A stretch of 64,000 nucleotides of DNA from a bacterium (GTDB taxonomy: Bacteria; Electryoneota; Electryoneia; Electryoneales; Electryoneaceae), in NCBI GenBank assembly GCA_963669175.1, contig OY769902.1:2944001-3008000 (forward strand), given 5' to 3'. Made by a program: the position numbers and the translations under genes. Positions 20,052-37,492 of this stretch are shown here, piece by piece. The stretch's first letter is position 1; the number at the start of each line of letters is the position of its first letter. Under the pieces are notes generated by a model. That model made no database searches, had not been told where the DNA came from, and was given only the letters and a program-made list of their open reading frames with translations.

Positions 20052-23000
20052 CTACCTCACCAGGATCATCTTCTTCCGCACATTCATCTTTCCCGAAACC
20101 TGGGCATGGATGAAGTAGACACCACTTGGCAGTCCCTGGGCATTGAAGGAGAATTTGTGATACCCTTCCGGGTAACGTCCGTCGGCCAGCTCCTGCACCC
20201 GACGTCCCAGGACATCATAGATGCGTACCGTCAGTGTTGCTGAATGCGGCAGTGATACCACAACATTTGCTGTCGCGTTGAATGGGTTCGGATAGGTTCC
20301 CGGTACACCATAAGCTGTCGGCACGCCGCTCCAGGGATCCGGCACAGGGTTGTAATACAGGACGAAGAAGCCAAGCGTATCGGATGCCCAGGTTCCGTCC
20401 GTATTGCTGTCCGGGACAAAAACTGACCAGTAATACTGCCGGTAGGATTGCAGGCTGTCCGTACTGAACAGGGTATCGGTTAAGCCATCAGCAATACACC
20501 ACGCGGTTGAGAAATCAGGCAGTGTGTCGATCCAAACTTCATATCGCACGCTGTCATAGGGGTCAGGGTCAAACGAAGGCGCCCAGGAGAACTCCAGCTC
20601 ATCCAGACGGACCGAGTCCCCATCAGCAGGCGCATACAGGTCAAACGCGACCGGTGCATCCGGAATGTCTGTGATAAAGTGCCAGATACCGGAACCTGGG
20701 GGATTTGCAACCGTCATAAGTCCGAAATCATCTACCGCATATACTTTCCAGAAGATAGTTGAATCATCCGGTAGTGATCCGGTGCTGTTGTTCAGAACAG
20801 AATCCATCCCGGTTACGAGGTATTGCGTGTTGTTCGTATAGACAACAACGCTGTCCTGCAAGTCGGATGAGGTTGCCCAGATAACCTTGTAGCGAACGTG
20901 ATCACGAATATCGGAATCGATGGATTCTGTCCATTCCAGCAGGGCAAATGGCGTACGAATCGTATCGCCATTCGCCGGTGCGAGTTGCGCGAAGGGGCCG
21001 GGAGGATCAGGTTTCAGCGCCCAGAAACTGTAGGTCTGCTTGGACCAGGTGCCGGTGGTGTTGGTGTCCTGCGCACGAACTTTCCACCAGTACATCGTAG
21101 TATCCTGCAATTCATGGATGTCGATGTAAGGCGTAGCGACTGTAATGGAATCTATATGCCCGGCAAACGCTTCATCCTGGGCCAGGTAGACCACGTACTC
21201 AACAGTGTCATTTGAATCCGGATCAACCGCTTCTTCCCAATCCAGGCGCAGCCCAAGGGTGCTGGCCAGTGAACCATTGTCCGGGCTCAACAGGTTGAAT
21301 GCGGAAGGTGGACGTTCCAGTGAAACATAAAAACGATGAGTATGATTAGCCCAGGTGCCGCGTGAGTTGGTATCCTGCGCGCGCACCTTCCACCAGTAAT
21401 TCACATGGTTCAATAACCCTGTCATGTTATAATCCGGGGAATAGGCTATGGCTGAATCGAGACCATTGCTGAAATCTTCGTTCAGCGCCCAGTAGACCAC
21501 GTAATACACCGCATCACCGGGATCAGGATCTGCTGCTGCTTCCCAAAGCAGGTTCACACCCTCGTCATGGACGACATCACCATCTTCCGGTGACAGCAGC
21601 TCGAATTGTGCCGGCGGTTCGCCGATCTGGACGTTGAACGACCAGCCTTCTTCCTGGTTGCACAGGCGCTGGCTGTTGTAACGATCCTTCGCGTAGACGC
21701 GCCAGTAGATTGTTGTCCCATCCGGCAAATCATCAAGGTTGTCATCGTTGGTAGTCTTGTTGTCAGATGAGAAACTCGATGCGTTTGAACCTGATTCGAA
21801 CGTCTGACCGGTCGTGACCTGGTTCTCTGCCGCTTCGAATATGCCGACTCGATTCTGATTATTCTGTCGCCTTCCGGAAGTTGAAACAACGGTTGAACCG
21901 GATGACGAATATGTACTAATCGCAGATCCGGAATGTTTATTGGATCGTCCGGCGCGTGGTCCTCGTTGTGAAACCTTACCGAGTTCCTGCTCAGGATCAG
22001 GTGTCGAGTTCGTCAATTCATTGTTCGGCAACTCCGAGATCAGGAAAGTAGTGTCGCCGACTTCCTGGAAAGCGTTGTTCTCGAACTGGTTGTCCGTCGC
22101 CCATTCAACGATATAGGTTACATGATCGTTAGGATCGTTGTCCGTGGTGCTGTACCAGGAAACCCGGACCGTATCATCGTGGAAAATGGAGTTGTCATCC
22201 GGCCCGGCAAGGCTGAACGGATTCGGTGCGACCGGGATGAAGGTGTACAAACGGAATATGGTGTCTGACCACCTGCCCAGACCGTCGTTGTCCTCCGCGT
22301 AAACCTTCCAGAAACGGTTAGAACGATTGGGAAGGTTAGTCAACGCGATTGTCGTGTCCTGCGTTGTCAACGTATCCAGATTCTGACTGAACGCCTGATC
22401 GGATGCGGTGATTATGCTGTATGTGATCAACGCTTCAGGGTCGGGATCAAATGCGCTGGCCCAGACCAATGTTGTATCTCCGGTCCAGCAGGTGTCGCCA
22501 TCTGCCGGGCTGAGCAGGGTGAAAGTTTCCGGCGGCTCCGGCAGATACACAGTGAAAGACCACCCGGTGTCCGGATCGGCAAAGCGTTCAAGATCATAGA
22601 TGTCATGCGCACGCACCCGCCAGAAAATCGTGGAATCATCCGGCAGTTCATCGAGGCCGTTTCCGGCAAGTACTTCGGCCAGGTCCGTAATGGTATAGCT
22701 GGTGTCAGTTATCGAATCTGCGCTGAAGAAAGCACTGAATTCCGGATCAAGCGACCAGAACACTTCGTAGACAAAATCTTCATCAGCGTTGGGATCTGTG
22801 CTCGGTGTCCAATGTACCGTAACCGTATCGCTTTCAACTCTGCTGTCTGGCATGGGATCAGCCAGGGAGAAGGCGAAGGGACCGTCAGGAATAAATATCC
22901 GGACGGCAACAGTATCCGTGTATACATCGAAGCCGTGAGTGTCAAACGCGTGCACATTGATGTAGTACAGGGAATCATCCAGCAGGCCACGAATCATCAG

Positions 23001-26000
23001 GCTGGTATCTGCCAGGATCATGGCGCTGCATGGTTCGGCGAATTGACGGTCCGTATCCCAGAGGATCTCGTACAATACACTGTCGCCCGGGTCCGGTTCT
23101 ATTGAAGAAGTCCAGGTAACCAGCAGGGAATCTGTCCAGCAGGTGTCGCCATCGGCCGGGGAAACAAGTGAGAAACCGGTTGGCGGTTCGAAGATGTAGA
23201 CATCAAACTGCCACCCATTTACCGGGTTTGAACAGGTCGTTGCGCCGCTGACCGAAGTGGCAAACACACGCCAGTAAACAGAGATGTCATCCGGTAGCTC
23301 ATCGAGGTCTCCGTTGAAGACTACATCCTGCAAGTCCGAAATGGAGAAGGAGGTGTCTGCCGTGCTTCCGGTATAGGATACAGCGAACAACGGGTCTGTA
23401 GCCCATTCAACGGTGTATGTGACGGCGCCACCGTTCAGGGGATCGGAAGATGAATTCCAACGTACTAACACTGTATCGTTATGCGTCTGGGTTCCGTTGA
23501 CCGGTTGAGCCAGTCCAAACGGCAGCGGCGCATCCGGGTTTTCTACAGTGAATATAAACGTATCCGTAGACCATGTTCCCGGTGTGTTGCTGTCCTGGGC
23601 GCGAACTTTCCAGGAGTAGGTGGTGTTACTGATCAGGTCCGAAGCAGCATAGCTGGTGTCGGTTACGATTGTTGAGTCTACTGTCATGGTGAAAGTCGGA
23701 TCAAGCGCCCACCAGACCACATAGCCCAGTGTGTCACCGGGATCAATTTCGCCCGCTGATTCCCAAACAAATGTCGTGTCTGATCCGTGGACAGTAGATT
23801 CATCAGCAGGTGACAAAAGGTTAAACGCTACAGGCGGATCATAGAGGTAAACATTGAAACGATAGCCTGCAACCGGATCGCAGCGGGTTTGATAACCATC
23901 CGGATCTTCCGCCAGCACACGCCAGTACACCGGGGCATCATCGGGAAGTTCATCCAGATTTTCCCAGAACTGCGGATCGGAAAGGTCAGCTATGGTAAAG
24001 AAGGTATCCGTTGTTGTAGCGGAATAAGCGGTACTGTACAGGGCATCGGGTGACCATTGGACAGTGTAGGTTATATCGCCGCCCTGCGGATCAACTGACG
24101 GATTCCAGCGAACTGTCACTGTGTCGTTATGAACTTCTGCATCGTTTGCCGGAGACGCCAGCGCAAACAGTGAAGGGGCATTGGTGACATTGGTATGCAT
24201 CACCCAGGTTGCATCGGACCATGTGCCCGGGGAATTGCTGTCCTGGGCGCGTACCTTCCACCAATACGAAACGCCGCTGATAATATCAAAGGTATAGGTT
24301 GTGTCTTCACCGGTATTCGATGAATCCACATCCAGTGAGAAATTGCTGTCTGACGCCAGCCAGATACGGTAGGTGACATTGTCGCCTGGGTCGGTATCGT
24401 AGGTCGACTCCCAGGTCATGGTCTGGGCGCCGCTGGTGACAGTTGCTTCGTTCAATGGCGAAAGCAGGCTGAACGGTTCCGGCATGGACGGGAAGTTGGC
24501 CAGGAAATGGAAAACCTCCGTGGACCAGGTGCCGTTGGTGTTGTTGTCCCGGGCACGAACTTTCCAGTAATAGGTTGAATCATCCAGCAGACCGGAGATG
24601 TGATAACTGGTGTCCGCAGTGATCACGGAATCAAGCCCACTGGTAAACGTATTGTCAAATGCCCACCATACAACATAATCGACCGCGTCATCCGGATCTG
24701 GTTCTGCAGCCGTTTCCCATACCAGCGTAGTATCCCCGCCGAAGTATACCGTATCGCCATTGCCCGGACTCAGGAGGGAGAAGGGGGTTGGCGGGTCGGC
24801 GAAGTAGACGGTAAATGACCAGCCGTTGAAAGGCGTCGCGTTAGTGGTTAAACCAAGACGGTCTGTAGCGGTGACACGCCAGAAGACGGTTGAATCTTCC
24901 GGGATTTCATCCAACTGGTTTTGCAGGCCATTGATGGTGTAAGAAGTGTTTCGCGTGGTACCCGTGTACGATGTGGCGAAGGTAGGATCGGTAGACCATT
25001 CCACGGTATAGGTAATCGTATCACCGGGATCAGGATCAATACTCTGGGTCCAGGATACGGTAACACTATCATCCGCGACGTTGCTGCCATTGGCCGGACT
25101 TGCCAGTGAAAACGCGCTTGGAGCGCCGGGGATATGAACATGCAGGCGATTGACCTGGCTGGACCAGCGACCCGCTGTGTTGGTGTCGTTCGCCCGGACC
25201 TTCCAGTAATAATCGTTGTCATCATTCAGATTGTTGAGTGCCATGGCGGTTACAGGACCAACAGTTGCCATTGAATCAAGGTTCTGAGTAAATGCGGCAT
25301 TAGTGGCAATCCACACAACATAATTGACAATCGCATCACCGGGATCGAGGTCGGTTGCCGCTTCCCAGGTCAGGGTCGTATCGCCGCTGTAACAGGTATC
25401 GCCGTCGTCTGGTGACAACAGGCTGAACGGTTGCGGTGGAATCCAGAAACGGGTATAGAACGACCAGCCGGAATTTGGCGTGCATAGTGTTTCATTCCCA
25501 AGCCTGTCAATCGCCTTTATGCGCCAGTAAATATTCGTTGAATCGGGCAGGTTTGGGAGTGTATAGGTCAGGTTCCCGGTTATCGCAGAGTTGACCAGTC
25601 CCGAGAAATCGTTCTGTTCGGACCATTCGACTCGGTATCGCAGCACATCGCCCGGATCAGGATCGATGGCGGCGTTCCACGATACCAGTTGCGAATTATA
25701 ATGAACCGTATCCTGGTTCGCAGGGGCGGCCAGGGTGAAAGCGCCGGGCGATTCATGGATGTATACCGGGATTCGCCAGGTTTGTGTTGACCATGTACCC
25801 GTAGTATTGGTGTCCTGCGCACGAACCTTCCACCAGTAGGTATGGTCATCAAGCATACCGTTCAAAGCATATGTGGTCAGCGCTGTGGAAGCGGAATCGA
25901 GGTTCTGGGTGAAAGCCGCATCCGTTGCCCACCAGACCCGGTAGGTAATCGCATCACCGGGATCAGAATCGGTGGCGGCCTGCCAGGTCAGGGTCGTATC

Positions 26001-29000
26001 ACCGGTCCAGCAGGTGTCCATGTCAAACGGTGATGACAGGCTGAAAGCATTGGGCGGATCGGGGATCGCGGCAACGTAAAACGACCAACCGGAGGATGGG
26101 ATGCCATCGATGCTTGTTCCGAAACGGTCCGCAGCACGCACCCGCCAGTAGATCCGGGCATCATCAGGAAGCTCATCCAGCTCGTTGACAATATTCTGCA
26201 TGTCGGTGATCGTCAGGAAAGTGTCCGTAGTCGCGCCATGGTAATAGGTTGCGAAACCGGGATTCAACGACCAATTTACCGTATAGGTAATCACATCGCC
26301 GGGATCGGCATCGGCTGACGCTGTCCAATGAACTCTGACGGTGTCGTTATAGATAATTGCTTCATCTGCGGGAAGCGCAAGATTGAAAGCTGTCGGTCCA
26401 TCCGGGATATAGACATGGAAACGATTGGTTTGCGTTGACCAGGTGCCCGTGGTATACAAATCCTGCGCCCTGACTTTCCAGTACCAGGTAGAATTGTCCG
26501 GCCGGTTATTCAGAGGATGAGTTGTTCCGGCAACTGTGGCCGAGTCGAGATCCTGCGTAAACGCAGCATTACTAGCCCACCATACGACATAATGCACAAC
26601 ATCGTTCGGGTCGGTATCCACTGCCGCCTGCCAGGCCAGGGTTGTATCGCCATCCCAACAGGTATCGTTGTTGGTGGGGGACAGTAGGCTGAAGGCATTG
26701 GGCGCTGTCGGGATATAGACATGAAAAGAACGTGTATCCGTGGACCAGCGACCGGATGAATTGCTGTCCTGCGCCCGGACTTTCCAGAAATACGTAGTAT
26801 GATCATTCAAGTTGTTCAGATCATATGTAGTTTGTCCCGCCGCGACGGAAGCGGAATCAAGGTTCTGGGTAAAGGCCGCGTTGGTTGCCCACCAGATGAC
26901 ATAGTTCTGGATAGCGTCCCCGGGATCGGGGTCGCTTGTTGCCTGCCATGTGAGTGTCGTATCGCCGGTCCAGCAGGTGTCGCCCGTATCCGGTGACAAC
27001 AGGGTAAAGGGGGCAGGCGGTTGGGTGATATAAATGTCAAATGACCAACCGGCCGCTGGGGTTGCCCAGGTCTGTTCACCATAACGATCTGTTGCCAGGA
27101 CACGCCAGTATATGGTCGTGTCATCGGGTAATTCATCCAGCTCGTTGGAAACGATATTCTGAAAATCTGTTATTTCAAGCGAGGTTTCGGTAGTCGAACC
27201 GGTGTAGAAACTTGAGAAATCCGCATGACCGGACCATTGCACATGGTAGGTGACAAGATCATCCGGGTCGGGATCAATGGACGTTGTCCATTGAACTGTA
27301 ACCGTATCATCATTGATCACAGCGCCGTCAGCCGGTGAGGACAATGAAAACGGCCCCGGCGGTTCCGGCGAATAGACTTTGAGATGATTGACCTGGTTGG
27401 CCCAGGTGCCGTTGGTATTGCCGTCCTGCGCTCGCACACTCCAGTAATAGGTCTGATCATCGAGCATGTTGAGCAGTTCATAGGTGGTATCCGGGACGTT
27501 CACCGAAGCGCTGTCCAGATTCTGGCTGAAAGTCGCGTTAGTTGCCCACCAGATTACGTAACGCTGTACCGCATCTCCCGGATCGGGGTCTGTGGTTGTG
27601 CGCCAGACAAGGGTTGTATCCCCGGTCCAGCAGGTATCCGTGTTCAGTGGCGTAACAAGATCAAAGGCCAGGGGAGCGTCAAAGAGATACACATTGAAAG
27701 ACCAGCCCGCGACCGGTGTTGCCCAGGTTTCGTTTCCGAATCGGTCTATCGCCTTTACCCGCCAATAGATGGTCGTGTCATCCGGTAGCTCGTCCAGTTC
27801 ATCCAGTCCGCCCAGCAGCAGGTCGTGCAGGTCGGAAATGACGAAAAATGTATCTGAGGTCGATCCTGAATAGAAACTGGAGAAGTTGCTGTGCTGGGAC
27901 CAGTTGATATGGTAGGTAATGGGATCGCCAGGGTCAGGATCTATCGAACGTTCCCAGGAAACCGTAACCGTATCGTTATGCACATCGCTGGTATTGGCTG
28001 GAGCATCCAACGCGAAGGCGCCGGGTGCATCCGGGATATAAACATGGAAATATCGTGTCTGGGTTGACCAGGTTCCGGTAGTGTTGCCATCCTGCGCACG
28101 GACTTTCCAGTACCATGTGGAATTGTCAGCGAGATTGACAAGGTTTAATGACGTAGTTGGAACATTTACTGAAACAGAATCGAGATTCAGTGTAAATGCT
28201 GCGTCGGTAGCGTACCAGACCACATAACGCAAAACCTGGTCACCGGGATCAGGGTCCGTTGCCGCCTGCCATGTCAGGGTTGTATCCCCGGTCCAGCAGG
28301 TGTCGCCGTTGAGGGGGCTGGTCAGGTTAAACGGATTTGGCGGATCGGGATGGTACTCCGTATAAAATGTCCAGCCAGTGTCCGGTGTCGCCCATGTCTG
28401 GAAATTATAGTTATCCTGCGCATAAACACGCCAATAATAAAGCGCATTATCGGTCAATTCATCCAGGTCATTGCTGTTGTCAGAGATGTTGTAGGTGGTA
28501 TTGCTTGTTGAGCCGGTCCAGTGGGGTGTGAAGTTTTCATTCAAAGACCACTGCACGTAGTAAGTTACGTCATCATCCGGATCGGGGTCGCTAGAGGCTG
28601 TCCAACTCACGGTAACAGTATCTTCGCCGAGTATGGCGAAATTGGCTGGCGACTGCAAATCAAACGCAGTTGGCGGTTCATTAATAAAAACACGAAAGCG
28701 ATATGTAGATGTACTCCATCGTCCTTCAGAGTTTGTATCAATTGCTTTCACTTTCCAGTAGTAGGTCTGATCATCACTGAGTTCGGCAATGTTTACTGAA
28801 GTCGCCGGCGGATCGACATCGGCTGAATCCAGTCCCACGGTAAAGGCCGCATTCCTTGCCCAATAAACACGATAGAAAAGAGAATCACCCGGGTCAGGTT
28901 CTGTCGAGGATTGCCATGTCAATGTTGTGTTGTCTTGCCAGACTGTATCCGTATCTCCCGGACTCAACAGATCGAATACAGATGGAGGTTCCGGGATATA

Positions 29001-29717
29001 CACATGTATCTGCCAGGTTTCCTGGGACCAGGTCTGGCCATGTGGCTGACCGTCTGTGGCGAGGATTTTCCAATAGTAGGTCTGATCATCAAGCATTCCT
29101 GCGCGATTATGAGTCGTATCGCCGGTAATCGGGTTGGTCACATTCTGGGTAAAGAGTGGATCTGTGGCCATGTAAACGCGATAGTTTACATTCAATCCTT
29201 CATCAGGGTCGCTGGAGGATGACCAGGTCAGAGTTGTGTCACCGGTCCAGCAAGTGTCCCCGTTGGCCGGAGCAAGCAGGTGAAAATCTGTCGGTGGAGC
29301 ATTCAGGTCGATATAAAACCACCATCCCGCCTGGGGGGTAGCCCAGGTTTCATCATTTTCATTATCAACGGCCTTTACACGCCAATACACACGGGTGGAA
29401 TCGGGAAGCTCATCCAGCTCTTCCAGGTTGAAGCCCTGTACTATCTGGTCGGCAAGATCCGTGATGGCGTAATTGCTGTTAATGGTCGTTCCACTGTAAA
29501 AGCTTGAAAAATCGGCATGAGTTGACCATTGGACATGATACAATATTTGACCGCCATCGGGATCAACCGAAGCGCCCCACCACACATAAACGGTGTCATT
29601 CTGAACTGTAGTTTCGTTTACAGGTGAAATGAGGTTAAAAGCAACTGGTGGTTGCGCATAAGCGGAAAGGCTTACTATAACCAGAAATATAAAGACTGTT
29701 GAAAGTCGCTTCATCAT
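20052..29717 (-). CDS. Giant (3221 aa) secreted protein: 28 FnIII/Ig-like repeats plus T9SS-type C-terminal domain
   Basis: Signal peptide; I count 28 units P..F.L..P...W...D.D..D...Y...W...YW.V.A.D; C-terminal YPNPFN...IYDVLGR...SGVYF...KMILVR. Confidence 0.9.
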   Translation of the reverse strand: MMKRLSTVFIFLVIVSLSAYAQPPVAFNLISPVNETTVQNDTVYVWWGASVDPDGGQILYHVQWSTHADFSSFYSGTTINSNYAITDLADQIVQGFNLEELDELPDSTRVYWRVKAVDNENDETWATPQAGWWFYIDLNAPPTDFHLLAPANGDTCWTGDTTLTWSSSSDPDEGLNVNYRVYMATDPLFTQNVTNPITGDTTHNRAGMLDDQTYYWKILATDGQPHGQTWSQETWQIHVYIPEPPSVFDLLSPGDTDTVWQDNTTLTWQSSTEPDPGDSLFYRVYWARNAAFTVGLDSADVDPPATSVNIAELSDDQTYYWKVKAIDTNSEGRWSTSTYRFRVFINEPPTAFDLQSPANFAILGEDTVTVSWTASSDPDPDDDVTYYVQWSLNENFTPHWTGSTSNTTYNISDNSNDLDELTDNALYYWRVYAQDNYNFQTWATPDTGWTFYTEYHPDPPNPFNLTSPLNGDTCWTGDTTLTWQAATDPDPGDQVLRYVVWYATDAAFTLNLDSVSVNVPTTSLNLVNLADNSTWYWKVRAQDGNTTGTWSTQTRYFHVYIPDAPGAFALDAPANTSDVHNDTVTVSWERSIDPDPGDPITYHINWSQHSNFSSFYSGSTSDTFFVISDLHDLLLGGLDELDELPDDTTIYWRVKAIDRFGNETWATPVAGWSFNVYLFDAPLAFDLVTPLNTDTCWTGDTTLVWRTTTDPDPGDAVQRYVIWWATNATFSQNLDSASVNVPDTTYELLNMLDDQTYYWSVRAQDGNTNGTWANQVNHLKVYSPEPPGPFSLSSPADGAVINDDTVTVQWTTSIDPDPDDLVTYHVQWSGHADFSSFYTGSTTETSLEITDFQNIVSNELDELPDDTTIYWRVLATDRYGEQTWATPAAGWSFDIYITQPPAPFTLLSPDTGDTCWTGDTTLTWQATSDPDPGDAIQNYVIWWATNAAFTQNLDSASVAAGQTTYDLNNLNDHTTYFWKVRAQDSNSSGRWSTDTRSFHVYIPTAPNAFSLLSPTNNDTCWDGDTTLAWQAAVDTDPNDVVHYVVWWASNAAFTQDLDSATVAGTTHPLNNRPDNSTWYWKVRAQDLYTTGTWSTQTNRFHVYIPDGPTAFNLALPADEAIIYNDTVRVHWTASADADPGDVITYTVNWSLNPGFATYYHGATTDTFLTITDMQNIVNELDELPDDARIYWRVRAADRFGTSIDGIPSSGWSFYVAAIPDPPNAFSLSSPFDMDTCWTGDTTLTWQAATDSDPGDAITYRVWWATDAAFTQNLDSASTALTTYALNGMLDDHTYWWKVRAQDTNTTGTWSTQTWRIPVYIHESPGAFTLAAPANQDTVHYNSQLVSWNAAIDPDPGDVLRYRVEWSEQNDFSGLVNSAITGNLTYTLPNLPDSTNIYWRIKAIDRLGNETLCTPNSGWSFYTRFWIPPQPFSLLSPDDGDTCYSGDTTLTWEAATDLDPGDAIVNYVVWIATNAAFTQNLDSMATVGPVTAMALNNLNDDNDYYWKVRANDTNTAGRWSSQVNRLHVHIPGAPSAFSLASPANGSNVADDSVTVSWTQSIDPDPGDTITYTVEWSTDPTFATSYTGTTRNTSYTINGLQNQLDEIPEDSTVFWRVTATDRLGLTTNATPFNGWSFTVYFADPPTPFSLLSPGNGDTVYFGGDTTLVWETAAEPDPDDAVDYVVWWAFDNTFTSGLDSVITADTSYHISGLLDDSTYYWKVRARDNNTNGTWSTEVFHFLANFPSMPEPFSLLSPLNEATVTSGAQTMTWESTYDTDPGDNVTYRIWLASDSNFSLDVDSSNTGEDTTYTFDIISGVSYWWKVRAQDSNSPGTWSDATWVMHTNVTNAPSLFALASPANDAEVHNDTVTVRWNPSVDPQGGDITYTVQWSPDALYSTAYSATTTDTFFTIADLSDPQFWENLDELPDDAPVYWRVLAEDPDGYQTRCDPVAGYRFNVYLYDPPVAFNLLSPADESTVHGSDTTFVWESAGEIDPGDTLGYVVWWALDPTFTMTVDSTIVTDTSYAASDLISNTTYSWKVRAQDSNTPGTWSTDTFIFTVENPDAPLPFGLAQPVNGTQTHNDTVLVRWNSSSDPLNGGAVTYTVEWATDPLFAVSYTGSTADTSFSISDLQDVVFNGDLDELPDDISVYWRVFATSVSGATTCSNPVNGWQFDVYIFEPPTGFSLVSPADGDTCWTDSLLVTWTSSIEPDPGDSVLYEILWDTDRQFAEPCSAMILADTSLMIRGLLDDSLYYINVHAFDTHGFDVYTDTVAVRIFIPDGPFAFSLADPMPDSRVESDTVTVHWTPSTDPNADEDFVYEVFWSLDPEFSAFFSADSITDTSYTITDLAEVLAGNGLDELPDDSTIFWRVRAHDIYDLERFADPDTGWSFTVYLPEPPETFTLLSPADGDTCWTGDTTLVWASAFDPDPEALITYSIITASDQAFSQNLDTLTTQDTTIALTNLPNRSNRFWKVYAEDNDGLGRWSDTIFRLYTFIPVAPNPFSLAGPDDNSIFHDDTVRVSWYSTTDNDPNDHVTYIVEWATDNQFENNAFQEVGDTTFLISELPNNELTNSTPDPEQELGKVSQRGPRAGRSNKHSGSAISTYSSSGSTVVSTSGRRQNNQNRVGIFEAAENQVTTGQTFESGSNASSFSSDNKTTNDDNLDDLPDGTTIYWRVYAKDRYNSQRLCNQEEGWSFNVQIGEPPAQFELLSPEDGDVVHDEGVNLLWEAAADPDPGDAVYYVVYWALNEDFSNGLDSAIAYSPDYNMTGLLNHVNYWWKVRAQDTNSRGTWANHTHRFYVSLERPPSAFNLLSPDNGSLASTLGLRLDWEEAVDPDSNDTVEYVVYLAQDEAFAGHIDSITVATPYIDIHELQDTTMYWWKVRAQDTNTTGTWSKQTYSFWALKPDPPGPFAQLAPANGDTIRTPFALLEWTESIDSDIRDHVRYKVIWATSSDLQDSVVVYTNNTQYLVTGMDSVLNNSTGSLPDDSTIFWKVYAVDDFGLMTVANPPGSGIWHFITDIPDAPVAFDLYAPADGDSVRLDELEFSWAPSFDPDPYDSVRYEVWIDTLPDFSTAWCIADGLTDTLFSTDSLQSYRQYYWSVFVPDSNTDGTWASDTLGFFVLYYNPVPDPWSGVPTAYGVPGTYPNPFNATANVVVSLPHSATLTVRIYDVLGRRVQELADGRYPEGYHKFSFNAQGLPSGVYFIHAQVSGKMNVRKKMILVR

Positions 29718-30327
29718 GGTTCAGGCTCACAAAGATCGCTTGAAAACTTGTACAGACCCAATAACAGTATCACAAGCTCAGTAACCCTCAATTGTTCGAA
29801 CAAATGCTCTAACAAACCTTCAAACTTCGCATTGCCCCATATGTTTACTTCTAAACATACTCCAAGTGTCACTCATCTATGATGAAATGTGCGTAGGAAA
29901 ACCGTCAAGAAGCGTGACGTAAAAGTACTTGGAAATAAACAACTAACATTTCCAAGGATGGGGAGAATGTCTGCGCCTGCGTGCAAGCCAATATACAAAA
30001 AGAACACTCTGAATGCACTCAATATGTGCCTTCAGAAAGAAGAATAAGAAGTTTTTTCGTATAGTCTGGTGAGCAATATCACATGGTAAAAATATCTGTG
30101 CAAAAACAGAAAATCTTTCATGATCACTTTTGATTTCAGAAGGTGGAAGAATACATTGGACAATCGATTGGGGCCTCTATTGCCGTGTAGTATTTCTCTG
30201 GCGCCAAGCTCCGCGGGAATCGTGAATTGTATATTTTACCTGTACCGATATCAGCGCGTCAGTTACTTTGTGAGTCAGATCACGCCTGGTACAGATACGT
30301 AGAAACTCCATTTCATCGAGGTCGCAT

Positions 30328-30714
30328 ATGAAGATCTTATACATCGATGATGACCAGACGATGCGAAAAATCGTCAAACACATTGTAGATGTTATTGGTG
30401 CAGAGCTTCTTGAGGCGGAAGATGGGAGGGGCGGTCTGCGTTTGCTTGAAGATATCGATGGCAAAGTGGACTTGATTCTTCTGGATTGGATAATGCCTGA
30501 AATGAATGGCATGGAGTTCTTGCAGGCTGCAAAAGCAGATGGCAGGTTTAAGGAAATTCCTGTTATCATGCTGACAGGTGTGACGCAGAAAGAAAAGATG
30601 ATAGACGCAATTCGTGCAGGAGCCAAACAGTATATTACCAAACCGTTCACCAGCGAAGAATTATTGACAAAACTGGTGCAGGCACTTGGACTGGATAGCC
30701 TGGAGATGTTGTGA
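30328..30714 (+). CDS. CheY-like single-domain response regulator
   Basis: IDDD, LLDWIMPEMNG, MLTG and YITKPF motifs. Confidence 0.93.
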   Translation: MKILYIDDDQTMRKIVKHIVDVIGAELLEAEDGRGGLRLLEDIDGKVDLILLDWIMPEMNGMEFLQAAKADGRFKEIPVIMLTGVTQKEKMIDAIRAGAKQYITKPFTSEELLTKLVQALGLDSLEML

Positions 30715-31571
30715 GAGATCAGATTATTCATGAGCTGTCTTTGAAGGCAGATTTACCGCCTCTTCCTGATATTCTTATACGACTGGACCAACTGATAAAC
30801 GATCCCAATGTGTCCATCAATGCTATTGCGGATCTGTTATCCACAGAACCGGCGCTCTCGGGCAAAGTGATCCAACTGGCCAATAGTGCATATTATGGTG
30901 GCGGGAGAATAGATGTTGAAAACCTGCGGGGCGCTGTGCTTCGTCTGGGGTTGGCTGAAATCCGTAAAATGGTATATGCGATCAAACTCGGTTCCATGTT
31001 CTGGGATCAAGGTATTGTTGATCAGCGGAAATTCTGGCGGCATAATCTTGGTGTTGCCCTGTTGACGCAGAAGCTTGCCGCACGTGGGAACGCGCAGATT
31101 GCTGACCGGGAAGCGGCCTATGTTGCCGGGTTGATGCATGATGTTGGCATTATGGTGTTTGGGTATATTATTCCTGAAGTTTACAGCGCTTTTCTTGCCA
31201 AAGCTGCCGAAATTGATAAGCCGTTGCATGTGCAGGAAAAGGAGACTTTTGGTATTGATCATTCCGAACTCGGTGCATTATATATACAAAGATGGTGGAA
31301 GATTGAACAAGCTGTTGAATTGGCAGTAGCGCAACACCATTTCCCAATCCACCGGGATGATGAATTCCGTTTGATCGGGCAACTTGTGAATGTGGCCAAT
31401 GCCATTTGCAATAATCAGGGATATGAGAACGGAATCCAGGTGTTTCCGCAGATGTTCAGTGATACGGCCTGGGAGCAGATAGGCCTGAATATTTCAGAAG
31501 CAAAAGCAATTTTCCAGGATGTAAAAGATGCAATTGCGCAATCCGAAGAGTTACTGGCGCCAATGGCATAG
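30711..31571 (+). CDS. HDOD domain protein
   Basis: LPPLP, EPALS..VI.LANS, AV.RLG, FWRH, AGLMHDVG and DHSELG motifs; overlaps the CheY-like stop codon by 4 bp. Confidence 0.92.
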   Translation: MRDQIIHELSLKADLPPLPDILIRLDQLINDPNVSINAIADLLSTEPALSGKVIQLANSAYYGGGRIDVENLRGAVLRLGLAEIRKMVYAIKLGSMFWDQGIVDQRKFWRHNLGVALLTQKLAARGNAQIADREAAYVAGLMHDVGIMVFGYIIPEVYSAFLAKAAEIDKPLHVQEKETFGIDHSELGALYIQRWWKIEQAVELAVAQHHFPIHRDDEFRLIGQLVNVANAICNNQGYENGIQVFPQMFSDTAWEQIGLNISEAKAIFQDVKDAIAQSEELLAPMA

Positions 31572-31651
31572 TTGAATAATCACTGTTGCTTAAAATCTTA
31601 TTATTGAACCATATACGTGTTTCCATGTGCATAATCTTCACAAAGCTTCAC

Positions 31652-31680
31652 TTGACTTTTCCCACTTTCCGCAGTACACT
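31652..31680 (+). promoter_or_regulatory. Sigma70-like promoter of the Rrf2 gene
   Basis: TTGACT, 17-bp spacer, TACACT. Confidence 0.55.
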
Positions 31681-31719
31681 CTACTTTGAGGACAAAGTGA
31701 CCATCAGGAGGATAATACG

Positions 31720-32145
31720 ATGTTGACGACGACTTCCGAGTATGCCATTCGAGCCTTGGGATATCTGGCAACCAAGGATCGTGATACTCGGGTTGGCTCT
31801 GATGAGATTTCTGAAGCAACGAGAGTACCGAAAAGATTCTTGCTCAAGATTCTGAATACGTTGAAAAACCAGGGGATTTTGAAAACCAGCCGAGGAATAG
31901 GCGGCGGTTTCTCGCTGGCGATGGAGCCAGGCGAGATCAAACTGATCGACATTGTTTCGATTTTTGAAGATCTGAACAGGCATAAGCATTGTCTTTCCGG
32001 TCATGACGATTGCGGCCCTTCCAATCCTTGTCCGCTGTACGAGGAATGGCATATAATCCTCAAGAAGTTGGAGGATTTCTTGAATGAGACGACTCTTCAG
32101 CATTTTAAAGAGTTCGAAGAACAGCGTGGAAAGAGCCTGATCTAG
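31720..32145 (+). CDS. Rrf2-family transcriptional regulator (three Cys, probably Fe-S binding)
   Basis: SEYAIRAL, FLLKIL..L...G, SRGIGGGF.L and C-x6-C-x5-C motifs. Confidence 0.93.
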   Translation: MLTTTSEYAIRALGYLATKDRDTRVGSDEISEATRVPKRFLLKILNTLKNQGILKTSRGIGGGFSLAMEPGEIKLIDIVSIFEDLNRHKHCLSGHDDCGPSNPCPLYEEWHIILKKLEDFLNETTLQHFKEFEEQRGKSLI

Positions 32146-32443
32146 CATCGCCGGTTTGACCTTATTGAGTTTATTTCAGCTACCGTCCTGGTAGCTTTTT
32201 TTTTACAGCCAAGTATGGCGTGTCTACCTGTATGATAGCCCCATTTTTGTCAATGGAGACAGGGGAGATTGGGATAAACTTTTTTTCGAAAATTTTTAAA
32301 TTCGCTTCCACTATTGAAATGAATCTTACTAGTTTAATAGACTTCCTCGACTTTGGGCGCAATTCTGTGTCAAGGTTACGAGATCGGTGTTCATCGTGAC
32401 AAAGCCCGTATGATTTTGCTACGGTTCACTAGACGGAGGTTCG

Positions 32444-35400
32444 ATGATGAGAAGGTGTATTTCTGCGTTTGTGCTTGCCTTTTTACTTTCCTGCTATCTT
32501 CATGCTGCGCCAGCGCCTGTTGACCAGCTTTCAGCACAGCAGGCATTACCCATGCAAGTAGAGCAGCATGTTCTTGCAGAAGATCATGTGCAGCTTGGAT
32601 TGCGACTGGTCAATGATGGCTGGTATTCAGCAGGTAGTCTGGGTGAAGAAGTAGAAATGATAGCGTTTCCATTGGCTGGCGCTACCTCGGAAATTGGTAA
32701 ACCAGCGGTGCCGGTTATGGGGCGTATGTTTCGTGTTCCCCCCAGAGCCGGGATTGTGATGGAAGTGCTTAGTGCCGAATACGAAACATATACCGATGTC
32801 GAATACGCAACCTTCATGGGGTATGAACTGGATGAGCCCTTTGCGCCCTGTGATAATCCGGTTGACGAGTGGTATCCCGGCACGATCGCCCAGGTTGGTG
32901 ATCCTGCCGTATTCCATGATTTCCGCGTATCAAACCTGGTGACCTACCCCGTACAGGTAAACACTGCACGTCGGGAAGTACGAGTTTATTCCAATATTGA
33001 AGTGGATATCCGTTATGAAGGTGTTGATGATAGAAACACAATCCCTAATTGGCCTACAGAGATCAGTGAAGCTTTCCTGCCTGCCTATCGTTTGTTGATG
33101 GACTGGGATGATGACGAATTGGATGAATATATCCTGTATCGTGGTCATGTGCAGGTGGTTATGCGTGATGACGATGTGTTGTGGGCTGCCCTAGGGGATT
33201 GGCTTGAGTGGAAACGTCAGCGAGGATGGGTGCTGGATTTCCTCACCGATGAAGATGTCCCTTCCTGGACCTCATACAATATCGACAATGAGCTGGAAGA
33301 CCGTTACGAGACTGCCAGTCCGAAGTTTGACTATGTTGCCATTATCGGTGACGAGTCCGGCTCCTTTTCGGTTCCCCCCGGTGTGGGAGGATATGGTGGA
33401 GGTGACCAGATCTATTCCGAGCTTGCAGGTGATGATATACTGGCAGATGTCGGCGTCGGACGAATCTCGGTAGAAAATGTACAGCAGTTAAACAACTATG
33501 TTGCCAAGATTTTTAACTATGAGCGCACACCTTACATGGAAGATACCGCCTGGTATCTGCGTGGAATGGTAAATCGTTCAGATGGTTGTTCCGGTGTAAG
33601 TAAGATCATGTCGCTCCGGTATTACCGTCATGCCTTGTTTGATTTGGGATACACGCAAGTTGATACATCTTTTGGCATTGGGAACTCAATTGCTATAACT
33701 CGTATCAATAATGGTGTCAGTTTCTATGGTGCGCGAGGGGTTCAGGGCACCGGCCTTCAGATCGGAAACATCAATAGCCTCAGTAATGACTACATGACCC
33801 CAGTTGTGATCGATGTGACCTGTGGAACCGGTAACTGGTGCAACGAAACCAGCATCAGTGAGGCCTATATGCGGGCAGGGACTGCGGCAGTGCCGACCGG
33901 TGGTATTTGCGGGATGTCTATGGCGACTTCTGCAACGCAACCGGATTTCAACAACTGCCTGACGGGTGGTTCCGGTTGGGCGATGCTGCAGCTTGGCATG
34001 CCTGCACTTGGTGACATGATTCTAATGGGCAAGGTCAACGGCTTTAACAACTACTACGGCAATAATACGTCTCAGCTTGAAGACTTCATGCAATGGTATA
34101 ACCTGATGGGAGATCCGACTGTGTATACCTGGGTCGGTATCCCGCAGGAATTGACGGTGGATGTGGTCGAAGAGCTTGAACTTGGCGAAAACCATATCAG
34201 CGTTGAGGTGGTCGATGAGTCTGGCCCGGTTGCTGATGCGCTGGTAACTTTCTACAAATACAGTAATGGCGAAGAGATTCAAGTTATCAATTTGACGGAT
34301 GAAGAAGGTTGTGTCACGCTTGATGCGCCCGTTCGTGAATCCGGTGAAGCGATGCTGACAGTCATCAAACGTCATTATGCCCCTGTTCAGGTTGAAATCG
34401 ACGTGAATGATCCGACCGCGCGAGTTGGGTGGGTTGAGGTCAGTTACGTTGATAATGGAGTCGGTGGCACGGATGGCGATGGTGACGGTGTTCCTGAAGC
34501 AGGGGAAACTGTCGGCCTGGAGATGACACTGAAAAACTATGGGACGAGCGCTGCTGCAAGTATTGAAGTCACGGCTGAGGAATCCGAAGAATGGATTACG
34601 GATTTGTCCGGAAGTATTGTTCTGGGCAGTCTCAATCCTGATGCCCAGTCGCAAGGTAATGGTATGATTATTGTCGAAATAGACCCGGAAGCTCAACAGG
34701 ATTTTATCCTTCACCTGGATCTTACGGTTTCGACATCCCAGGGGGATTATACGGACGGTTATTCTATCGTTGTGCAAGCGCCTTCGTATGCGTTTGTGAA
34801 CATGGATATGACCGGTGCATTCAATCCTGGAAATACACGTGAAGTTGAGATTGAAATCCGAAACATAGGTGGAGGTGATGCTGCAGCGTCGGAAGCCTGG
34901 TTGTTCAGCAACGATCCCTTTGTCAGAATAGAGCAAGGTGGTGATGATCTGGCAGCTATGGGAGTTGATCAGACAGCAACAGGAACATTTTCCATTCGGG
35001 CGCATGAGGATGCTATTCCGGGATATGTCGGCTGGTTCTACATGCAAGTCACAACCAGTGAAGGACAGGTTGACACGGTAGGAATTCCGGTTCAGATCGG
35101 AACAAAAAGCTCTACTGATCCCAATGGGCCTGATAACTATGGTTACTTCGCGTTTGATAATACAGACACGGGGTATCAGAATTTTGTGCCGTCCTATAAT
35201 TGGATTGAGATCAATCCTGAAGCCCAGAATACGGACTACCAGGGGGAATCGCTTGATCTTACCGATACCGCCGAAAACTATGATGTAGGTGTCACCATTG
35301 ACCTGCCTTTCGATGTGCAGTATTACGGTGAGGTTTTTGAAGAGATATCTGTATCTACCAATGGGTACGCTTCTTTCGGACGTAATGCAGATGTCTCGCT

Positions 35401-37492
35401 TGCACGAAACTGGACAATTCCCAGCCCGCTTGGACCGAACGATATGCTGGCCGTCTATTGGGACGAGTTGAGAACCGCTGCAGGAAGTGATATCCTCTAT
35501 TATTACGACGAGGATAATGGTCGCTTCATCATTGAATGGTACGATATGCGGCATCATTATTCGCAGTACAGTTGTACCTTTGAAGTGATTATCTACGATC
35601 AGGATGTCGTGCCAACGTGGTCTGGTGACAACGATATCCTGTTCCAGTATCATGATGTCCAGCATTCAACCGGTGGTATGCAGTACGATGTTCCCTTCTG
35701 GACAACAGGCATTGAAAACCACACCCAGGATGATGGAATCCTGATCTCCTACTGGAATCAGTATACAGCAGGATCAGCGACGATCGAGGATGAACGTGCG
35801 ATTCTGTTTACCACGAATATCCCCCTCATTGTAGGCTACATTGAAGGGACTATTACGGCGGCCGATCTGGAAACACCGATTGAGAATGCATGGATCGGTA
35901 CACCAAACCATCTTTTCGAAACCGTGACAGACGCCGATGGCCATTTCTTCATTGACAATGTCATGACCGGACCAGTCTCCTTCGATATTGAAGCAGATTG
36001 CTTTAACAGTCGGTACAACCTGGTGCTTACCGTTACAGAGAACGAAACCCTGCATGTCGATTTCCAGTTGAACCACCCGGAATTTATGGTGACACCACTC
36101 GCCGTTGGGGATACGCTGGAAGAGAATCAGGAATCGACACACTCTGTATGGGTACACAATCCCGGTAATGGTGTCATGAACTGGGAAGCGCATTTTGACT
36201 TCGAACCCGATGCTGAAGTAGCAGGTAATCCTGGCAAGGGAGCTGGTCAGGAGAAGTCAGCGCTGGATGAACTTGATGAACCATGGGACCAGGTTTACCA
36301 CTTTGATCTGGATGACAGTGAGGCCCTCTACCGGGGGATTGAGTTTGACGGAGTATTTTTCTGGTTGACCGGGTCGAACAACTATGATGTGACCGGTCCC
36401 AACCTGTTGTATAAATACACACGGGATGGTGATTACGTTGCCACCTATGATCAACCTGTTCCTGCGGCTGATCGTTCTTCCCAGGGTATGTTCGGGTTGG
36501 AATGGGATGGAGAATATATGTATGGTGCAGATAACGGTATCCTGTACCAGATGCAGTTTAATACGCAAGCGAATGAGTGGGAGGTTGTAAGTTCCTTTGA
36601 AATTCCGGCGAACCCTTCACGCTACATTGTGAAGAATCCTGAGACTGGTGAGTTCTTTATTGGTGACTACGGTATCGAGATCAGGGTTGTGCATCCTGAC
36701 AGTACCGGGACACTTCGCCAGATCGGGCAGGACTATGCACCACGTGGCGCTGCATGGTACCCGGAAGATCCGGACGGCTATAACCTGTATTTCATCGCTA
36801 TGAACAATGGTGATGATTACGGTCATATCATCAAAATGCATCCGCAAACGGGTGACACCATGAATGTCGCGCAGTTTGAGTACGATGGCGGCATTCCCAG
36901 TGGGGCGTGCATGAGTTATCTGTGGAATCCGCAGATCTGGATGTTTGCCAGTATGATGGACGCCGGTCAACAAGATTATGTACAGTTGTGGGAAGTGGAT
37001 CAATTCGACGCGTGGATTCACATTATGACCACAGAAGGGACGCTTGCGCCAGGTGATTCCCAGGAAGTCGAACTGCAACTGACACCGCAAAGCCTTCCGC
37101 CTGATGTCTATGATATTTACATACGTTTCGACCACGATGCCTGTATCGCTGAAGATAACTTTGTGCATGTGGTTCTTGAGGTGCTTGGAGGAGATGTTAA
37201 AGAAGATCCCGCAAGTGAAGCGCAACCGGTTGAGTGGGTGTTTGAGGGAGCCTATCCCAATCCGTTCAATCCTTCTACTACAGTCAGCTATTCACTGAAA
37301 CGGGCAACAGATGTACGGTTGAGCGTGTACAACCTGCTTGGTCAGGAAGTGGCGCGACTGGTGGATCAACCCATGCAGGCGGGCCAACACCGGTTGATTT
37401 TTGACGGGTCCAACCTGGCCAGCGGTATCTACTTCCTGCATCTGAACGCGGGACCGTTACAGGAGACACGCAAGATCATTCTGATGAAGTAA
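32444..37492 (+). CDS. Gingipain-like peptidase C25 multidomain protein with T9SS-type C-terminal domain
   Basis: Signal peptide; C25 propeptide (GKPAVP, FHDFRV..L..YPVQ); catalytic-domain hallmarks WK...G, IIGD, VGRIS, KI.NYE, DVTC460G and NLMGDP; Ig-like and carboxypeptidase-regulatory-like segments; YPNPFNP C-terminal domain. Confidence 0.88.
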   Translation: MMRRCISAFVLAFLLSCYLHAAPAPVDQLSAQQALPMQVEQHVLAEDHVQLGLRLVNDGWYSAGSLGEEVEMIAFPLAGATSEIGKPAVPVMGRMFRVPPRAGIVMEVLSAEYETYTDVEYATFMGYELDEPFAPCDNPVDEWYPGTIAQVGDPAVFHDFRVSNLVTYPVQVNTARREVRVYSNIEVDIRYEGVDDRNTIPNWPTEISEAFLPAYRLLMDWDDDELDEYILYRGHVQVVMRDDDVLWAALGDWLEWKRQRGWVLDFLTDEDVPSWTSYNIDNELEDRYETASPKFDYVAIIGDESGSFSVPPGVGGYGGGDQIYSELAGDDILADVGVGRISVENVQQLNNYVAKIFNYERTPYMEDTAWYLRGMVNRSDGCSGVSKIMSLRYYRHALFDLGYTQVDTSFGIGNSIAITRINNGVSFYGARGVQGTGLQIGNINSLSNDYMTPVVIDVTCGTGNWCNETSISEAYMRAGTAAVPTGGICGMSMATSATQPDFNNCLTGGSGWAMLQLGMPALGDMILMGKVNGFNNYYGNNTSQLEDFMQWYNLMGDPTVYTWVGIPQELTVDVVEELELGENHISVEVVDESGPVADALVTFYKYSNGEEIQVINLTDEEGCVTLDAPVRESGEAMLTVIKRHYAPVQVEIDVNDPTARVGWVEVSYVDNGVGGTDGDGDGVPEAGETVGLEMTLKNYGTSAAASIEVTAEESEEWITDLSGSIVLGSLNPDAQSQGNGMIIVEIDPEAQQDFILHLDLTVSTSQGDYTDGYSIVVQAPSYAFVNMDMTGAFNPGNTREVEIEIRNIGGGDAAASEAWLFSNDPFVRIEQGGDDLAAMGVDQTATGTFSIRAHEDAIPGYVGWFYMQVTTSEGQVDTVGIPVQIGTKSSTDPNGPDNYGYFAFDNTDTGYQNFVPSYNWIEINPEAQNTDYQGESLDLTDTAENYDVGVTIDLPFDVQYYGEVFEEISVSTNGYASFGRNADVSLARNWTIPSPLGPNDMLAVYWDELRTAAGSDILYYYDEDNGRFIIEWYDMRHHYSQYSCTFEVIIYDQDVVPTWSGDNDILFQYHDVQHSTGGMQYDVPFWTTGIENHTQDDGILISYWNQYTAGSATIEDERAILFTTNIPLIVGYIEGTITAADLETPIENAWIGTPNHLFETVTDADGHFFIDNVMTGPVSFDIEADCFNSRYNLVLTVTENETLHVDFQLNHPEFMVTPLAVGDTLEENQESTHSVWVHNPGNGVMNWEAHFDFEPDAEVAGNPGKGAGQEKSALDELDEPWDQVYHFDLDDSEALYRGIEFDGVFFWLTGSNNYDVTGPNLLYKYTRDGDYVATYDQPVPAADRSSQGMFGLEWDGEYMYGADNGILYQMQFNTQANEWEVVSSFEIPANPSRYIVKNPETGEFFIGDYGIEIRVVHPDSTGTLRQIGQDYAPRGAAWYPEDPDGYNLYFIAMNNGDDYGHIIKMHPQTGDTMNVAQFEYDGGIPSGACMSYLWNPQIWMFASMMDAGQQDYVQLWEVDQFDAWIHIMTTEGTLAPGDSQEVELQLTPQSLPPDVYDIYIRFDHDACIAEDNFVHVVLEVLGGDVKEDPASEAQPVEWVFEGAYPNPFNPSTTVSYSLKRATDVRLSVYNLLGQEVARLVDQPMQAGQHRLIFDGSNLASGIYFLHLNAGPLQETRKIILMK

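Follow-up and report, generated by a model that had tools for sequence, protein, structure and literature searches.

The closest described relatives of the proteins considered here are the gingipains, cysteine peptidases of family C25 (clan CD) from Porphyromonas gingivalis, which are exported as cargo of a type IX secretion system (T9SS). Gingipains cut at Arg or Lys, both to remove their own propeptides and to separate the domains of polyproteins. Gingipain RgpB (structures 1CVR and 4IEF) has two autoprocessing sites, Arg126 and Arg229. Arg126 stands on an inhibitory loop of the prodomain, which is inserted into the S1 pocket, and is salt-bridged to Asp163, as set out in the available sections of a review of clan CD (PMC4357240). 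According to the same sections, the helix alpha-1 position determines S1 specificity across the clan, and a basic residue at alpha-1/L1 of caspase-7, Arg87, makes an Asp-binding S1 pocket. They also give a His/Cys dyad for every clan CD family that they cover (PMC4357240). The present analysis concerns a window of 64,000 nucleotides (contig positions 2944001-3008000 of OY769902.1) from the 5.45 Mb, single-contig genome of a bacterium of the family Electryoneaceae. Two genes of this window, one for a C25-like protein of 1682 amino acids (aa; 32444..37492, + strand) and one for a giant repeat protein of 3221 aa (20052..29717, - strand), share the short acidic motif Glu-Leu-Asp-Glu (ELDE). The motif was followed through the secreted proteins of the genome and through related genomes, and the C25-like protein was compared with RgpB. 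We give about an even chance to the reading that ELDE serves the T9SS cargo as a lineage-specific maturation signal and is cut in trans.

ELDE in type IX secretion cargo

Cargo proteins were collected with an iterated hidden Markov model built from C-termini and run on a crude gene set of the source genome based on open reading frames (ORFs). About 330 proteins with a T9SS sorting domain were obtained, which make up about a fifth of all coded residues and include ORFs of 10,354 and 11,593 aa. The 330 cargo proteins hold 158 copies of ELDE against 8.1 expected, and after removal of the C25 paralogues and the giant protein 123 copies remain in 310 proteins against 7.3 expected. The 3322 non-cargo proteins of at least 100 aa have 60 copies against 36.0 expected. 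The ratio of observed to expected copies (O/E) is accordingly 17-20 in cargo, compared with 1.7 in non-cargo. The initial annotation had suggested counting the looser pattern LD[ED] along with ELDE in proteins with and without a sorting domain. The strict motif proved to be strongly enriched in cargo, but LD[ED] is weakly enriched over the whole genome (O/E 1.5 in cargo, 1.2 in non-cargo), so that the signal sits in ELDE itself. At least one copy was found in 86 of the 330 cargo proteins, and the sharing of the motif by two neighbouring genes, which had first drawn attention to it, is thus not special.

The 158 motifs of the cargo are written in 27 different 12-nt codon spellings, which indicates that selection acts at the protein level and rules out a DNA-level repeat or recombination site. 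When tandem ELDELDE copies were merged, the remaining 150 sites fell into 42 clusters of downstream sequence. ELDE lies inside the first 120 residues in 36 proteins, and the residue after it is hydrophobic (L/F/Y/I) in 98 of the 158 cases. In all four subtilases tested, it stands 23-33 residues upstream of the Pfam start of Peptidase_S8, and in two of three tested papain-like proteins it stands just upstream of Peptidase_C1. ELDE may be regarded as a common border signal of the cargo, placed after flexible linkers or loops and before the ordered start of many unrelated domains.

The C25-like protein compared with RgpB

The C25-like protein consists of a signal peptide, a gingipain-type prodomain, a C25-like domain, an Ig-like/CARDB region, a CarboxypepD_reg domain, a large C-terminal domain, and a C-terminal sorting domain (CTD). 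Its Pfam matches are Peptidase_C25 (PF01364; 102.5 bits, cut-off 23), Propeptide_C25 (PF08126; 45.1 bits), CARDB, CarboxypepD_reg, and Por_Secre_tail. The CTD, of T9SS type A, covers aa 1604-1679 (37253..37480, +; PF18962, 42.9 bits; TIGR04183, 40.7 bits). A profile made from 30 members of the family was aligned to RgpB (4IEF), and a pairwise alignment to the 1CVR chain was made besides. The profile matches the mature domain of RgpB (4IEF_B) with an E value of 2e-61 and the prodomain (4IEF_A) with 3.3e-26. An AlphaFold2 (AF2) model of aa 1-650 reached a predicted local distance difference test score (pLDDT) of 89.8 and a predicted template modelling score (pTM) of 0.90. Foldseek matched this model to 1CVR with E 4.4e-27, a template modelling score (TM) of 0.81, and a root-mean-square deviation of 3.1 A, and to the 4IEF prodomain with TM 0.77. 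The likeness to RgpB extends to the same prodomain, catalytic, and Ig-like folds (TM 0.77-0.84), the CTD of T9SS cargo, the conserved nucleophile Cys, and the same short motif at both positions where RgpB is cut. The two systems differ in copy number, with about 20 C25-like paralogues here, each of about 1700 aa, and in the nature of the motif, which is acidic here and a single Arg in RgpB.

Both processing sites of RgpB have an ELDE at or near the aligned position. Site 1 (Y-ELDE-P, aa 128-131; 32825..32836, +) lies in a prodomain loop aligned with the inhibitory loop and first autoprocessing site, and Arg126 falls on its first Glu in the pairwise alignment and on its last Glu in the profile alignment. 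Site 2 (aa 225-228; 33116..33127, +) stands at the junction of prodomain and catalytic domain, directly before Tyr229 (ELDEY, 33116..33130), and is aligned within about 1-4 residues of Arg229|Tyr230. The initial annotation had placed the junction motif at an RgpB-like propeptide site. This is confirmed, and the correspondence holds at both autoprocessing positions, since site 1, which had escaped its list, was found in addition. A third border is marked by ALDELDE (aa 1273-1279; 36260..36280, +), at the end of a Gly/Lys/Gln-rich linker that precedes the last large domain. The protein has five LD[ED] in all against 1.4 expected, four of them LDE (aa 129, 226, 1274, and 1277) and one LDD (aa 1289). 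In the AF2 model the pLDDT, about 95 in the surroundings, dips to 77-83 over aa 121-140 around site 1 and to 80 over aa 221-230 around site 2.

The motif is well kept among relatives. An ELD-type motif (ELD[EDQNRY] or ELN[DE]) is found at the junction in 44 of the 45 close representatives that have a residue there, the exception reading ALDQ, and 19 of the 20 paralogues in the source genome have EL[DN]x. The third border carries ELD[ED] in 10 of the 15 closest paralogues of that genome (at least 40% identical).

The S1 position differs from RgpB as well. Asp163 of RgpB, the specificity residue that binds the P1 Arg and the prodomain Arg126, is aligned with Lys387 (33602..33604, +) in both the pairwise and the profile alignment. 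In the AF2 model, Lys387 is located on the first turn of helix 385-401, which matches the alpha-1 position. The acidic residue is not kept in the wider family either, most members of which have Thr or Cys. The replacement of Asp163 by Lys387 would support an acid-binding pocket. Among the 20 paralogues, EL[DN][DE] is present in the prodomain loop of nine out of ten with Lys387 and of two out of ten without it, and the loop column aligned to the Asp of ELDE holds Glu or Asp in 54 of 97 distant family members. Judging from these alignments, the pocket with Lys387 most likely holds the acidic loop residue of its own prodomain. The C25-like protein would then be a gingipain-type zymogen in which the acid-binding pocket is occupied by the protein's own ELDE loop.

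Caspases (C14A) belong to the same clan, and Lys387 falls at the matching start of helix alpha-1. E-L-D resembles the x-E-x-D pattern of caspase sites. Caspases depend on a His/Cys dyad and mostly favour a small residue at P1'; here, the His is absent and the residue after the Asp is always Glu.

The missing catalytic histidine

Of the two members of the clan CD dyad, the C25-like protein has kept the nucleophile Cys and lost the His. Cys460 (33821..33823, +) is aligned to the catalytic Cys244 of RgpB in pairwise and profile alignments and is present in 133 of 143 family members. The Y-T-G-H211-G stretch of RgpB is aligned to y-R-G-y-i in the family, which here reads Ala430-Arg431-Gly432-Val433-Gln434. 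Arg431-Gly432-Val433 (33734..33742, +) thus takes the place of Thr209-Gly210-His211 in a gap-free, high-confidence profile alignment. The available text of the review prints the catalytic residue as His221, which by position in the 1CVR chain is residue 211 (PMC4357240). In the AF2 model, strand 427-432 ends at this stretch. Arg431, two residues ahead of the lost His, adjoins the S1-forming Gly432 and is found in 135 of the 143 members. Position 433 is occupied by Tyr in 60, Trp in 36, Phe in 17, and His in none of the 143 representatives; the column holds no His in the 20 paralogues of the source genome, and no conserved His was found anywhere in the 30-sequence family alignment. The lysine-specific gingipain Kgp keeps the catalytic His in the alignment. 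Many of the distant C25-like members (P0055-P0152) also have no catalytic His; they show R-(D/E)-x-(E/D)-(Y/F)-Q-Q-P at the junction of prodomain and catalytic domain and a loop motif Q-x-L-x-S-E-S-x-P. On the sequences compared, the His-less state is old and widespread in the phylum.

No clan CD peptidase is known to us to be active in the absence of the catalytic His. Since the canonical residue is replaced by Val433 and no member of the family has a His in this column, catalysis by the C25-like protein is doubtful, and it is safer to take the protein for a substrate and latent binder of the motif than for its cutter. Seven of the eight members without Arg431 also lack Cys460, a co-loss that amounts to about two independent contrasts and is not significant. 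Two paralogues that lack both residues retain the ELDE of sites 1 and 2, and in one of them site 3 has it as well. Pure self-processing would explain this less well than a cut in trans or a role other than proteolysis. For these reasons, the proposal of the initial annotation that the C25-like protein is an acid-specific cutting enzyme is not supported. Six C25-like paralogues, two of them without both Arg431 and Cys460, are arranged in tandem with one unrelated cargo gene at positions 651071-681682 of the source genome.

The family search returned 4658 representatives at E<=0.001. Environmental surveys, in the portions of text available, place C25 'gingipain' homologues among the extracellular peptidases on the strength of homology, and a family of thousands in which none of the 143 members examined has the catalytic His bears on such work in environmental genomics. 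A literature search gave no account of ELDE as a propeptide, cleavage, or secretion motif or of His-less C25 homologues, a result that does not establish their absence from print. What the alignments presented here would add is the mapping of ELDE onto the RgpB sites, the exchange to Lys387, and the missing His.

FN3-like modules of the giant protein

The giant protein has a signal peptide, about 29 modules resembling fibronectin type III (FN3) domains, of types A and B, and a CTD of T9SS type A (aa 3142-3218; 20064..20294, -; PF18962, 40.9 bits; TIGR04183, 35.8 bits). Pfam fn3 (PF00041) matches it with 212.5 bits in seven stretches, so that it can be described as a fibronectin type III repeat protein. 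It contains 17 LD[ED] against 3.2 expected. Ten of the type-A modules carry the motif, at aa 101, 418, 638/641, 860, 1180, 1602, 1921, 2138, 2355, and 2661 (21729..29417, -); at aa 2661 it is an LDD that comes after a Ser/Arg-rich stretch of about 100 aa. All motif coordinates of the initial annotation, in this protein and in the C25-like protein, were recovered by motif search.

In 10 of the 12 type-A repeats, LD[ED] stands immediately upstream of LP[DE]D..YW[RK]V, at the end of a loop. The description of this motif as the constant end of the insertion holds for these ten repeats; it fails for the repeat at aa 2906-3021, in which an insertion of similar length ends in STGS. The repeat at aa 1324-1426 has no insertion and reads LPN at the place of the motif. 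An AF2 model of one type-A module (aa 787-899, 113 aa; 27021..27359, -; pLDDT 90.0, pTM 0.82) is an all-beta sandwich with no secondary structure at module residues 64-80, where the insertion lies between strands. Module residues 70-73 (V-S-N-E), the last of which is the first Glu of the motif (aa 859), have pLDDT values below 50. The insertion ends in E-L-D-E (aa 859-862), which is followed by LPDDTTIYWRV, where the chain becomes well ordered. In this model the motif closes an exposed variable insertion, which bears out its earlier placement in a variable loop. A cut at ELDE would be expected to nick or trim the disordered loop of the module.

The ten copies are tandem duplicates of one module, and since they are paralogues they do not count as independent evidence. 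The ELDE-bearing type-A module was also found in at least 17 other cargo proteins of the source genome, and most genera of the same family have (L/F/I)DE-LPDD. A third family of the phylum has modules in which LPDD lacks the acidic pair. On the alignment of 11 type-A modules and these relatives, the acidic pair is not needed by the fold, yet part of the motif belongs to the module.

Lineage range

C25-like homologues that are close, with more than 40% identity, are restricted to the taxonomic family of the window, where 13 of 15 other genomes have them and a single genome yields as many as 31 matches. In other families of the phylum, the C25-like relatives are only about 30% identical. These relatives come from a genome-by-genome search; a single-protein search of genome contigs for C25-like relatives found none. 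ELDE follows the same division: its O/E is 1.3 in the 98 distant representatives and 23.9 in the 52 close ones. Genus g11 has ELDD at the junction.

A degenerate DNA pattern for E-(L/F)-D-E, whose density is a crude measure confounded by kinship, gave 32-50 matches per Mb in genera g1, g3, g6, and g9 of the family. It gave 16-23 per Mb in other families, where it is about 2-2.5-fold less dense than in several genera of the window's family, and 20 per Mb in genus g2. The genome search did not find the close C25-like subfamily in the two genomes of genus g2. The suggestion that LD-E is a lineage-wide processing tag can be retained in so far as ELDE is a real, protein-level, and lineage-restricted feature of T9SS cargo; the part that linked the two genes through their position has to be given up.

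Candidate cutting enzymes

The source genome encodes, in a single copy, a C25 peptidase of 1314 aa that is itself CTD cargo and has a gingipain-type prodomain (3259808-3263752). Its His483 and Cys519 are invariant. ELDE is present at its own junction of prodomain and catalytic domain in seven of seven orthologues from the family of the window and in none of six from other families, which have only a conserved Asp there. The peptidase was found in the source genome and in 6 of 15 other genomes of the family; with one exception, their genera are those in which the ELDE pattern is most in excess. Its S1 position is weakly aligned to RgpB, with either an Asp or a neighbouring Lys at Asp163. Judging from its sequence, this peptidase is a conventional candidate for the ELDE-cutting enzyme.

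PorU, the T9SS sortase (C25; 6ZA2, NF033707), likewise has a C25-type domain in a T9SS setting and acts on all cargo. An orthologue is encoded at 1039270-1043157 of the source genome (NF033707, 688.5 bits against a cut-off of 420; best PDB match E 1.2e-63). Unlike the C25-like protein, PorU and this orthologue keep the G-H-G and T-C motifs. PorU cuts at the CTD border and not at N-terminal ones; the CTD junctions of both window proteins have no ELDE.

Two C14 homologues of the source genome were rejected as cutters, having neither a CTD nor ELDE, and a search of the source genome for C13 and C11 peptidases gave no match. A cut at ELD|E would leave an N-terminal Glu, and this, by way of speculation, could be cyclised by a glutaminyl cyclase homologue encoded at 1797269-1797967 (PF05096, 306 bits).

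Interpretation

The reading of ELDE as a maturation signal implies a cut after the Asp or after the last Glu of the motif, which would be made in trans, at the cell surface, by an acid-specific protease. If ELDE is such a cleavage code, it would provide a second example, of opposite charge, of the gingipain principle, the maturation of a whole T9SS secretome through a single specificity. A simple sequence rule would then also predict where hundreds of surface proteins have their mature ends in this lineage of uncultured type.

Several observations weigh against this reading. The enrichment is not proof by itself. When all 4-mers that occur at least 40 times in cargo are ordered by O/E, ELDE takes only the 20th place, and the 19 ahead of it belong to conserved parts of the CTD or FN3 modules, e.g., PNPF, YWRV, and DPDP; because such domain pieces score as high or higher, the case rests on the diversity of ELDE contexts and not on the ratio alone. 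Many of the sites are paralogous, the largest context cluster comprising 33 sites from 17 proteins. Sequence composition differs modestly between the two sides of the motif, with a polar/small fraction of 0.56 upstream, 0.48 downstream, and 0.52 at random. One cargo protein has an ELDE only about four residues past the predicted signal peptide, where removal of a propeptide makes little sense. Structure prediction, which had been suggested as a check for exposed loops, gave exposed segments of low confidence, but the junction ELDE of the C25-like protein was modelled as a short helical turn (223-226) at a pLDDT of about 80 and not as a free linker. In the type-A modules, the Leu of LDE hardly varies, the repeat that lacks an insertion included, and FDE-LPDD (F/L-DE-LPDD) is present in one other family of the phylum. 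On a tree built from 46 close representatives, the co-variation of Lys387 with the loop motif comes down to 3-4 independent contrasts, which all point the way expected but are not significant (sign test, p >=0.25). Finally, the case as a whole is built from sequences and models.

The C25-like proteins, about 20 paralogues, might themselves be active Asp/Glu-specific endopeptidases that process themselves and mature the cargo, with Cys460 assisted by a non-canonical partner such as Arg431. The strong conservation and joint loss of Cys460 and Arg431 speak for such activity, as do Lys387 in the S1 pocket, ELDE at both positions that match the RgpB autoprocessing sites, the acidic loop column of the distant members, and the fit of E-L-D to the caspase pattern. 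Genus g2, at baseline density of the ELDE pattern in both genomes, in which the close subfamily was not found, agrees with it as well. We nevertheless consider it unlikely. No His occurs in the relevant column in 143 of 143 members, and no other conserved His is available in the 30-sequence alignment. A His/Cys dyad is a feature of all families in the part of the review available (PMC4357240). ELDE persists in paralogues that have lost Arg431 and Cys460, and the joint loss of these two residues reduces to about two independent contrasts. The loss of the catalytic His with retention of a substrate pocket is, moreover, the usual mark of a binding pseudoenzyme, which leads to the possibility that ELDE is not cut at all. 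It could serve as a docking or border tag bound by His-less C25-like pseudoprotease receptors that assemble the surface cargo, or as a capping or Ca2+-binding element at domain starts. Inactivated proteases are a recognised category of T9SS cargo, as the existence of NCBIfam NF052323 ('T9SS-dependent M6-like inactivated metalloprotease', a weak match) indicates. The helical turn at the junction and the ELDE right behind a signal peptide would suit an uncut element, and packing would be served by the conserved Leu and by the hydrophobic residue that follows the motif. The sequences that follow the motif are hard to square with a shared fold requirement, since they fall into at least 42 contexts. 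Three peptidase families also have the motif at the pro/mature junction, a place that is as a rule cleaved; two FN3-like repeats fold without it, according to the alignment; and the residues just upstream of it are the least confident of the module model. An uncut ELDE is, to our mind, an improbable explanation too.

It is very unlikely that the shared motif is a coincidence of paralogy, with LDE a conserved piece of the FN3-like module, the C25 motifs an unrelated family trait, and the two genes unlinked. The tandem origin of the ten copies in the giant protein, F/L-DE-LPDD in the modules of another family of the phylum, the divergent genes with unrelated genes between them, and the conserved domain pieces that match or exceed the O/E of ELDE would all be accounted for. 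A coincidence would leave unexplained the occurrence of ELDE in 42 contexts and 86 cargo proteins, at about 17 times expectation after both gene families had been removed, and the confinement of the enrichment to one lineage. The most far-reaching version of cleavage at ELDE is rather unlikely in our view. It would have a large branch of the gingipain family replace the His by Arg-Gly-aromatic, re-charge its S1 pocket to Lys in this lineage, and become a caspase-like x-E-L-D|E protease that pairs Cys with Arg. ELDE would then be a secretome-wide maturation code, by which propeptides are taken off C25, S8, and C1 peptidases, the domains of giant adhesins are separated, and an N-terminal Glu is left for possible cyclisation by the glutaminyl cyclase homologue.

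The locus

Both window genes encode T9SS cargo, and the translations of both begin with a basic and then hydrophobic N-terminal leader, as judged by eye. They are divergently oriented and separated by 2.7 kb, and an HDOD gene lies in the gap. Genes for a lipoate ligase, 2-oxoacid dehydrogenase, an SDR protein, PgpA, and a DDE transposase surround them. The divergent orientation, the intervening HDOD gene, and the unrelated flanking genes rule out an operon or functional neighbourhood, and with this the functional link that had been drawn from their position falls away. As the source genome has 23 Peptidase_C25 matches and about 330 cargo proteins, a C25 gene beside a giant cargo gene is expected by chance.

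An ORF for a DDE_5 family transposase of 444 aa is located upstream of the giant gene (window positions 15683-17017, -). The C25-like protein contains, at about aa 885-1130 (window positions 35100-35800), a domain without a Pfam match whose start has the pattern G-(G)-P-D-x-(F/Y)-G-Y-x-(F/Y)-x-D. The same domain recurs in many cargo proteins and, in 11 others, comes directly after an ELDE near the N-terminus.

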